Origin: a virus
Lineage: Duplodnaviria > Heunggongvirae > Uroviricota > Caudoviricetes
Strand: one strand, 5' to 3'
Virus record (IMG/VR): IMGVR_UViG_2671180417_000020
Length of the DNA: 3,146 nt
Below, piece after piece: positions 2,066 to 2,149 of the stretch. How positions within the stretch are numbered: position 1 is the first letter of the stretch; each line of letters starts with the position of its first letter. A program made the translations under genes and the position numbers. A model generated the notes under the pieces. The model searched no databases. It was not told the origin of the DNA and saw nothing but the letters and a program-made list of their open reading frames with translations.

Positions 2066-2095
2066 TTGACAATGCCTCCAAAGCTATCGCATACT
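2066..2095 (+). promoter_or_regulatory. candidate sigma70 promoter P2 (TTGACA -N18- CATACT)
   Basis: Perfect -35 TTGACA at 2066-2071; 18-bp spacer; -10-like CATACT at 2090-2095 (A2 and T6 present, 4/6). Same architecture and same relative position as P1. Predicted start near 2102. Confidence 0.4.
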
Positions 2096-2121
2096 GACCG
2101 CACTACAACGTCAGCGGTCAA

Positions 2122-2149
2122 CCGCACCCGATAGCTTTGCGGCTTTTTT
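2122..2149 (+). terminator. candidate intrinsic terminator / attenuator in the ant2 leader (CCGCA-N11-TGCGG + C + TTTTTT)
   Basis: Stem CCGCA (2122-2126) / TGCGG (2138-2142) and T-run 2144-2149. The flanking sequence (AACCGCACCCG ... GCGGCTTTTTTATG) is identical to the ant1-leader copy. Confidence 0.45.

Follow-up and report, generated by a model that had tools for sequence, protein, structure and literature searches.

We analysed a 3,146-nt stretch of DNA (hereafter the window) from a virus of the Caudoviricetes (IMG/VR record IMGVR_UViG_2671180417_000020). In this lambdoid, Shiga-toxin (Stx)-phage-like prophage region, a perfect inverted repeat connects P2, the predicted promoter upstream of the antirepressor-family gene ant2, with a small terminator in the leader that follows it. 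The repeat is improbable by chance, and RNA folding assigns it to the core of a long helix between the P2 spacer and the loop and 3' strand of the terminator. We propose that transcripts reading in from upstream would be stopped by this helix, that transcripts begun at P2 would read through by default, and that sRNA-Xcc1, a structured RNA element between the leader and ant2, would exert feedback on the leader. This is in our judgement the best explanation overall; our confidence in it lies somewhat below even.

The inverted repeat connects promoter P2 with the leader terminator

The elements concerned are as follows (P, predicted probability).

2066-2095, + strand: promoter P2, with the -35 TTGACA at 2066-2071, an 18-bp spacer at 2072-2089 and the -10 CATACT at 2090-2095 (10 of 12 consensus matches)
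2074-2076, + strand: GCC extension of the helix, predicted to pair with GGC 2141-2143 (P 0.97-1.00), flush with the U-tract
2079-2089, + strand: left arm of the repeat, CAAAGCTATCG, within the promoter spacer
2096-2101, + strand: element 1, GACCGC, in the promoter discriminator, predicted to pair with element 2 (hairpin 2096-2101:2114-2119)
2102-2114, + strand: 5' part of the P2 leader, with a1 ACUAC at 2102-2106 and b1 CGUCAG at 2109-2114
2114-2119, + strand: element 2, GCGGUC, whose predicted partner is element 1 in long RNA or, through its GCGG, CCGC 2122-2125 in P2 RNA
2122-2149, + strand: small leader terminator, with CCGCA 2122-2126, the 11-nt loop CCCGAUAGCUU 2127-2137, UGCGG 2138-2142, C and U6 2144-2149
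2129-2139, + strand: right arm of the repeat, CGATAGCTTTG, in the loop and, by its last two bases, in the start of the terminator 3' strand
2280-2306, + strand: ant2 translation start region, with a2 ACUAA 2280-2284, b2 CGUCAG 2287-2292, the Shine-Dalgarno (SD) sequence GGAG 2292-2295 and AUG 2304-2306

A first-pass annotation had described the repeat as perfect over 10 bp. It is present and perfect, but it is one base longer: the 11-bp arms lie at 2079-2089 and 2129-2139, 39 nt apart. The annotation placed both arms correctly, as the left arm falls inside the -35/-10 spacer of P2 and the right arm occupies the loop from 2129 to 2137 and then 2138-2139, where the 3' strand begins. When the window was dinucleotide-shuffled, 0.046 perfect inverted repeats of 11 bp or more, with arms no further than 60 nt apart, were expected per shuffled sequence, whereas the window itself contains three (506/518, 2079/2129 and 2471/2488). 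On RNA, the helix formed by the 2079/2129 repeat extends past a 2x1 internal loop through GCC 2074-2076 and GGC 2141-2143, and ends just before the U-tract.

A P2-type promoter match is by itself not above chance, since a consensus scan found 3 such sites against 3.1 expected. The terminator signature was used to search viral and genome collections for relatives, which gave 63 + 60 distinct modules, and an alignment of 38 related modules was used for counts of helix pairing and invariance. No position varied in this alignment within TTGAC or within the ACT at the predicted start, and the -10 kept its A (position 2) and its T (position 6) throughout. Transcription from P2 probably starts at A2102, in the conserved CA of "CACUAGAA". 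Because element 1 lies in the promoter discriminator, it would be present only in RNA begun upstream of this predicted +1. The helix between elements 1 and 2 was paired in 90% of alignment cells, with some two-sided changes.

Both the local stem and the long helix (ending at C2143) have the form of an intrinsic terminator, a GC-rich stem followed by a U-tract. The energy of the local hairpin was -4.8 kcal/mol. It was not flagged by the terminator scan, since the scan allows loops of up to 8 nt and this loop has 11 nt. No LexA box (CTG-N10-CAG) was seen in the leader when it was scanned by eye.

The same type of cassette, consisting of a near-consensus promoter, a short leader with a small hairpin and an sRNA-Xcc1 element, precedes both ant2 (module 2) and the upstream AntA-family gene ant1 (module 1). 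The leader hairpin in both modules is CCGCA-N11-UGCGG followed by C and U6.

1172-1267, + strand: module-1 counterpart, with the promoter TTGACA-N18-TATATT 1172-1201 and the terminator CCGCA 1240-1244 / UGCGG 1256-1260 followed by C and U6

In module 1, the spacer contributes two segments: CCGCAU 1181-1186, paired with AUGCGG 1255-1260, and ACGGGGC 1189-1195, paired with GC 1242-1243 and CCCGU 1245-1249 across a one-base bulge.

Predicted folding depends on where the transcript begins

The first-pass annotation reasoned that both arms occur together only in RNA begun upstream of P2, and that in such RNA the long helix would compete with the 5-bp terminator stem. Both points were borne out. The comparison of 2060-2155 with 2102-2155 was run and extended to further starts; the structures differed by start, and the long helix formed when the left arm was included. 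In RNA from 2054 or 1990, the helix won fully, with a P of 0.98 for the repeat helix, 0.97-1.00 for the GCC:GGC extension and 0.00 for the terminator. The inner hairpin between GACCGC 2096-2101 and GCGGUC 2114-2119 had a P of 0.98-1.0 when element 1 was present.

RNA from 2102 folded differently. GCGG 2114-2117 paired with CCGC 2122-2125 (P 0.91-0.96), which excludes the CCGCA:UGCGG stem in the manner of an attenuator, and the terminator had a P of 0.02-0.06. With element 1 present, in RNA from 2096, the values for the GCGG:CCGC hairpin and the terminator shifted to 0.01-0.02 and 0.95. When a1/b1 was blocked in silico, the P of the terminator rose from 0.06 to 0.90 in the window and to a mean of 0.76 in the family. 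In these predicted folds, occupation of a1/b1 restores the terminator because b1 overlaps the first G of GCGG.

Stepwise folding indicated that the left arm stays largely unpaired (P 0.4-0.7) until the right arm has been transcribed, and that the repeat helix has become the best structure by 2137, ahead of the terminator 3' strand. The extended 2074-2143 structure, including the inner hairpin, had an energy of -28.9 kcal/mol versus -4.8 kcal/mol for the local hairpin. Module 1 showed the same three-state folding with different arm sequences. Across the short-leader family, short RNA gave a mean P of 0.08 for the terminator and 0.81 for the GCGG:CCGC hairpin, and in long RNA the terminator 3' strand was paired with the promoter region at a mean P of 0.77.

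The complementarity is kept among relatives in different sequences

The proposed helices pair in 79% of alignment cells, against 29-46% when the partners are slid. The z-scores of promoter-versus-terminator duplexes had a mean of -3.4, and 76% were below -2. The spacer CCGC pairs with the stem-base GCGG in 30-32 of the 38 relatives. Most enterobacterial short-leader modules carry a spacer of the form CCGC(A/C)-N3-5-(G)CTATCG, which is the reverse complement of the 3' part of the loop and the 3' strand of the stem; its CCGC and (G)CTATCG persist while adjacent positions vary. Spacer complements of 14 nt were found in L044 and, only with G·U pairs allowed, in L085 and L099. Elsewhere the complementarity takes other forms: CTGTCG with loop GACAG in L087, GCCGCAGG in L055, TCGGG in L094 and L111, TTCGG with loop CCGAA in L081, and GCTATCGGG, giving 9-10 bp, in Symbiopectobacterium and Pantoea. 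The GCGG:CCGC hairpin was invariant in the alignment and is its RNAalifold consensus.

The terminator loop CCCGAUAGC is nearly invariant throughout the family, even beside unrelated promoters and including Pseudomonas. Since the loop is kept where there is no promoter complement, a constraint other than the repeat must exist. A downstream complement of the loop was sought as an explanation of its invariance, and it was found only in the L042-type subfamily (for example L042, L045 and L050), not in the modules of the window. In that subfamily, UCCGUACAAAGGUCGGGUGG begins to the 3' side of the terminator, at some 33-52 nt from it, and reaches into the Xcc1 closing stem on its 5' strand. It has complementarity to the loop and 3' strand of the terminator (-20.9 kcal/mol, z about -3) and constitutes a second, downstream partner. 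The loop CCCGAUAGC also resembles the 3' strand of the Xcc1 closing stem (CACCCGAUC).

Leader, sRNA-Xcc1 and ant ribosome-binding region match in a c4-like manner

An Rfam scan of the window at E <= 1 returned RF02221 (sRNA-Xcc1) as the sole matching family, and the leader itself matched none.

1287-1375, + strand: sRNA-Xcc1 of module 1, Rfam RF02221, 69.3 bits
2180-2264, + strand: sRNA-Xcc1 of module 2, Rfam RF02221, 53.0 bits, equal to the gathering score of 53

In both modules, the 5' part of the leader copies, in the same sense, the region just 5' of and overlapping the ant SD sequence, and both copies are complementary to the P3 loop of Xcc1 (and a junction segment). In module 1, the Xcc1 loop CUUUGCA (1341-1347) matches UGCAAAG in the leader (1227-1233) and in the ant1 SD region (1399-1405). 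In module 2, the loop CUGACG (2233-2238) matches CGUCAG in the leader (2109-2114) and in the ant2 ribosome-binding region (2287-2292), and the Xcc1 segment GUAGU (2241-2245) is complementary to a1; the 5' part of the P2 leader here forms a direct repeat (D7) with 2280-2298.

The three sequences change together across relatives. The same-sense run shared by a leader and its own 5' untranslated region had a mean length of 8.4 nt, compared with 4.8 nt for non-cognate pairs (95th percentile, 6), and an exact three-way 7-mer match was present in 54 of 107 modules, with 32 distinct 7-mers. Among 12 loci scanned, 10 had an Xcc1 match at or above the Rfam gathering score after the leader (55.9-73.6 bits), and no such match was found in L055 and L128. 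From this complementarity, Xcc1 is predicted to bind at a1/b1, and it may act as a c4-like antisense repressor of ant translation.

In uninduced enterohaemorrhagic Escherichia coli (EHEC) EDL933, Xcc1 is very abundant and untranslated, with 25,609 reads per kilobase per million mapped reads and a ribosome coverage value of 0.02 (PMC5331693, Table 1). Such abundance is consistent with leakiness of the leader terminator towards the promoter-proximal transcripts that the cassette itself makes.

An Rfam scan of the L067 prophage contig detected isrK (8218-8290) directly 5' of C4 (8318-8404), upstream of an AntA-family gene (MNDQLIPVF..., start 8455). This layout implies that the same antirepressor family is served by either IsrK/C4 or leader/Xcc1. 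Complementarity between spacer and terminator was not found for the L067 IsrK promoter. The same contig carries tandem leader-Xcc1 modules at 3447-3536 and 3667-3752, with no antirepressor gene between them and the second promoter directly after the first Xcc1.

No paper linking sRNA-Xcc1 to antirepressor control or describing this cassette was found in the searchable literature, and a search for printed copies of the terminator sequence returned nothing relevant. Several described elements were considered as this locus and rejected: the Pas small RNAs and Esr41 belong to the late region or to different families, the target of 24B_1, d_ant, is an ant gene downstream of R, and the ant gene of Phi24B lies before qut.

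Proposed mechanism

We propose that a long RNA helix, with the 11-bp repeat as its core, joins the P2 spacer (2074-2089) to the loop and 3' strand of the leader terminator (2129-2143), such that P2 would sit within the 5' arm and the apical portion of a large hairpin resembling a terminator. In RNA initiated upstream, that is, ant1 mRNA or any read-in transcript, the discriminator GACCGC 2096-2101 would sequester GCGGUC 2114-2119, and the spacer arm would zip onto the loop and 3' strand as they emerge. The resulting helix of 11 + 3 bp, about -29 kcal/mol overall (2074-2143), would end at the U-tract, and such RNA is expected to be terminated efficiently. The repeat would then mark the 3' end of the ant1 transcription unit and insulate Xcc1-ant2 from outside transcription.

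RNA initiated at P2 would lack the spacer arm and element 1. In this RNA, GCGG 2114-2117 would pair with CCGC 2122-2125 and pre-empt the weak 5-bp terminator, and transcription would by default continue into sRNA-Xcc1 and ant2. Binding of Xcc1 to b1 would restore the terminator, giving feedback attenuation together with a short leader RNA that mimics the target. The response of the predicted folds to a1/b1 blocking suggests such Xcc1-dependent attenuation.

Several observations weigh against this mechanism. A compact terminator hairpin would have a loop of about 3-8 nt and adequate stability, whereas the local loop has 11 nt and the long form encloses 39 nt; a terminator stem of the latter kind would be atypical, and its presumed efficiency is read from geometry alone. 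In the copy in the window, 3 bp past a 2x1 internal loop form the base of the helix, a weaker base than in the consensus. Unguided RNAalifold did not recover the long helix on the 38 sequences. Two-sided pair changes were few, since the 3' side is almost invariant, and kinship of the sequences could inflate the apparent conservation. The complement is wholly absent, with the same loop kept, in L041/L048, L080/L117, L097 and the whole Pseudomonas subfamily; the repeat is therefore dispensable for the cassette and leaves the conservation of the loop unexplained. Termination of long RNA in L041 and L048 was still predicted through element 1 alone, so that the repeat may be redundant. The strength of the repeat showed no association with the presence of a co-directional upstream gene (51/66 versus 18/24). 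Finally, P2 RNA begun at 2096-2099 rather than at A2102 would be predicted to terminate by default.

Alternative explanations of the repeat

The first-pass annotation assigned the opposite polarity: the long helix would disrupt the 5-bp terminator, read-through from ant1 would express ant2, and P2 RNA would stop. It is true that the helix abolishes the local stem (P 0.00 against 0.98 for the helix). Moreover, the perfect 11 bp in the window stop 4 nt short of the U-tract, the 3 further pairs past the internal loop may be too weak, and closure of a stem around 39 nt may be too slow for termination. However, the partner of the upstream arm is the 3' strand of the terminator, not the 5' strand, and the helix runs to C2143 beside the U-tract. 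Since the helix uses the loop and 3' strand and reaches the U-tract, it has the form of a longer terminator rather than an antiterminator. The relatives keep the pairing to GCGG, several with continuous 14-nt complements; a terminator needs this pairing and an antiterminator does not, which supports the terminator reading. Upstream RNA also contains element 1, which by itself favours termination, and P2 RNA from A2102 is predicted to be without the terminator, as are short RNAs across the family. Antitermination is accordingly unlikely in our estimate, and the polarity first proposed is probably reversed.

It also appears improbable that the helix serves the RNA in a way other than termination, as a stabiliser of the ant1 mRNA 3' end, as an RNase III-type site, or as a scaffold that displays a1/b1. 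The last variant draws on the predicted long RNA, in which a1/b1 (2102-2114) is placed in the loop of the inner hairpin 2096-2119 with the outer helix as its support; upstream transcripts would then be decoys that titrate Xcc1 and activate ant2 in trans, similarly to IsrK. The short, terminated leader IsrK of Gifsy-1 acts in trans to activate translation of the antirepressor mRNA made by read-through (PMC4825925), and in L067 isrK is immediately 5' of C4 and upstream of an AntA-family gene. On the other hand, the 11 + 3 bp of this helix would make a short substrate for RNase III, and roles of this kind are compatible with termination rather than exclusive of it.

The repeat could instead have no present function and be an inherited relic of cassette origin or recombination, for example an inverted duplication of the terminator that turned into a promoter. 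Most carrier sequences are related, two-sided changes are rare, members without the complement otherwise appear intact, and the helix is not called by RNAalifold. Against this, drift is normal in promoter spacers, but CCGC and (G)CTATCG are retained in these, and distinct lineages (module 1, L087, L055, L094/L111/L081 and Symbiopectobacterium) keep complementarity through different sequences and registers. We regard a relic as quite improbable.

Least probable, and in our view very improbable, is a DNA-level element of the kind suggested in the first-pass annotation, in which the arms are half-sites of a dimeric repressor or another DNA-binding protein controlling P2: the left arm does lie in the promoter spacer, a frequent operator position with unusually conserved sequence here, and the window encodes three antirepressor-family proteins, but the arms are not the closely spaced half-sites, conserved as DNA, of an operator dyad, being 39 bp apart with the right arm inside the transcribed leader and differing in extent and register of complementarity among lineages, and the non-Watson-Crick cells of the core helix are biased towards G·U on the + strand (45 versus 16 A·C, with L085 and L099 dependent on G·U), which is unexpected for a DNA palindrome. 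The G·U bias and the differing registers therefore point to an RNA helix on the + strand. A common spacer variant, CCGCCAGAG, resembles lambda OR1; this was treated as a coincidence, as neither the window nor other variants conserve the motif.

The window and its genes

The window encodes three antirepressor-family proteins in consecutive genes on the + strand.

291-1091, + strand: first antirepressor-family open reading frame, PHROG 1726
1415-2053, + strand: ant1, AntA-family gene, Pfam AntA match
2304-2936, + strand: ant2, AntA/P22_AR_C antirepressor-family gene, Pfam PF08346 and PF10548, PHROG 377 (anti-repressor Ant)

There is no terminator between ant1 and P2, and ant1 mRNA would continue into the module-2 leader. 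Matches to parts of the window were found in hundreds of Stx phages and in about 3000 of the 5426 complete E. coli genomes, and the whole window is present in no public record searched. The tandem layout looks like a recombinant of common modules. In L029, the ant1 3' end and the -35 (…AGATCGTTTGACAATGC) are the same as window positions 2053-2075 and are followed by the other type of leader, which suggests cassette exchange through recombination at the conserved -35 region. In phage 933W (L125, 58695-61670), the cassette with the ant gene ST933Wp80 lies about 320 bp from the attR core and reads inward; upstream transcription in the prophage would therefore originate in host DNA.

Other complementary segments were noted. 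Perfect hairpins with 6-nt loops are present at homologous positions inside ant1 (1582-1591/1598-1607, 10 bp) and ant2 (2471-2481/2488-2498, 11 bp), with different stem sequences (TTTGCTTTCC and TTTGGTTTCCC), and may represent a conserved RNA hairpin within the coding region. A perfect 11-bp hairpin at 506-516/518-528 (GGGTTACGAAA T TTTCGTAACCC) lies within the first antirepressor-family open reading frame. Over 20 nt, the final ant1 codons (2015-2034) show 80% complementarity to 2207-2226, the region of the P2 hairpin in the Xcc1 element of module 2. The module-1 U-tract and the bases after it, 1263-1276 (UUUUUAUGUCCAUU), are 93% complementary to the ant1 SD/start region 1402-1415 (AAAGGACAUAAAAA), and this pairing could occlude the ribosome-binding site in cis in read-through RNA. 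Module 2 seems to hold a weaker equivalent of this complementarity.

Significance

Antirepressors can switch prophages on, which in Shiga-toxin phages means toxin release. As a tentative extension of the mechanism above, the window may hold two copies of a modular and reprogrammable immunity cassette (promoter, leader, Xcc1 and antirepressor gene), in which Xcc1 would be a c4-like RNA with specificity set by its loop, the leader both a mimic and an attenuator, and the repeat a means of discriminating self from non-self transcripts. If so, the cassette's own transcripts would be regulated and read-in transcripts always stopped, and the Xcc1 loop sequence, of which there are at least 32 variants, would set the specificity. 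sRNA-Xcc1 would gain a concrete, testable job; this family, found widely across phages, prophages and integron cassettes, ranks with the most abundant non-coding RNAs of EHEC EDL933 (PMC5331693). Adjacent antirepressor genes could then be controlled without cross-talk, each with a separate loop "address" and with a terminator that lets no outside transcription past. A promoter within a terminator hairpin would also be a compact design in which the origin of the RNA sets its fate, and which could be sought elsewhere or reused in synthetic circuits.

Comparison with known systems

The principles of c4-type antisense control, IsrK-type leader and read-through isoforms, and attenuation through alternative hairpins are already known. 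What appears to be new is the RNA family involved and the nesting of a promoter in a terminator hairpin so that the origin of a transcript sets its fate.

In the immI region of P1/P7, the c4 antisense RNA, with its a' and b' segments set against the a1/b1 and a2/b2 repeats, controls icd-ant (c4-a1b1 motif, Weinberg et al. 2010, PMC2864571; Rfam C4, RF01695), and the heteroimmunity of P1 and P7 derives from short variable loops (reviewed in PMC12197685). The window is similar in that a structured RNA lies between promoter and antirepressor gene in one transcript, with loops complementary to both the ribosome-binding a2/b2 and an upstream same-sense a1/b1, and in that short variable loops would provide specificity (32 variants in the cassette family). 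It differs in that the antisense RNA is sRNA-Xcc1 (RF02221), another RNA family; the C4 model (RF01695) had no match in the window at E <= 1, although the same model does match L067 8318-8404. In addition, the a1/b1 copy in the window is fused to its own small terminator, and the promoter is nested in a hairpin with that leader terminator. We know of no description of such nesting for P1.

In the isrK-orf45-anrP operon of Gifsy-1, the promoter-proximal IsrK leader has its own Rho-independent terminator and yields a short RNA (Hershko-Shalev et al. 2016, PMC4825925), while some of the transcripts continue past this terminator to give a translationally silent antirepressor mRNA, on which short IsrK acts in trans (PMC4825925). 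The terminated promoter-proximal leader, the read-through to an antirepressor mRNA and the pairing of the leader with downstream sequence are shared with the window, and the isrK-C4-AntA layout of L067 equals the leader-Xcc1-ant layout. The sequences, however, are unlike those of the window: the isrK model (RF01394) had no match there at E <= 1 and does match L067 8218-8290, and the L067 IsrK promoter is without the spacer/terminator complement. The published mechanism is translational activation in trans, not attenuation or start-dependent termination.

Antisense attenuation is known from the plasmids pT181, pIP501 and pAMbeta1 and from the CI RNA immunity of P4 (seqA/seqB/seqC), where antiterminator (2:3) and terminator (3:4) hairpins are mutually exclusive. 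In the window, too, a small RNA on the nascent leader is predicted to favour the terminator (0.06 to 0.90), and as in P4, a sequence in the regulatory RNA region has a complement upstream and, in some relatives, downstream. The window differs in that the regulator is encoded downstream on the same strand and is not a true cis-antisense RNA. It differs also in that the upstream complement lies in the promoter spacer and is therefore absent from the cassette's own transcripts.

In the sib/tI retroregulation of lambda int, the fate of the RNA also differs by promoter; it is set at the 3' end, through N-dependent read-through and RNase III. The likeness is that the same DNA gives different RNA structures and fates according to the promoter of origin, whereas in the window the fate would be set at the 5' end, by whether or not the promoter sequence itself is part of the RNA.

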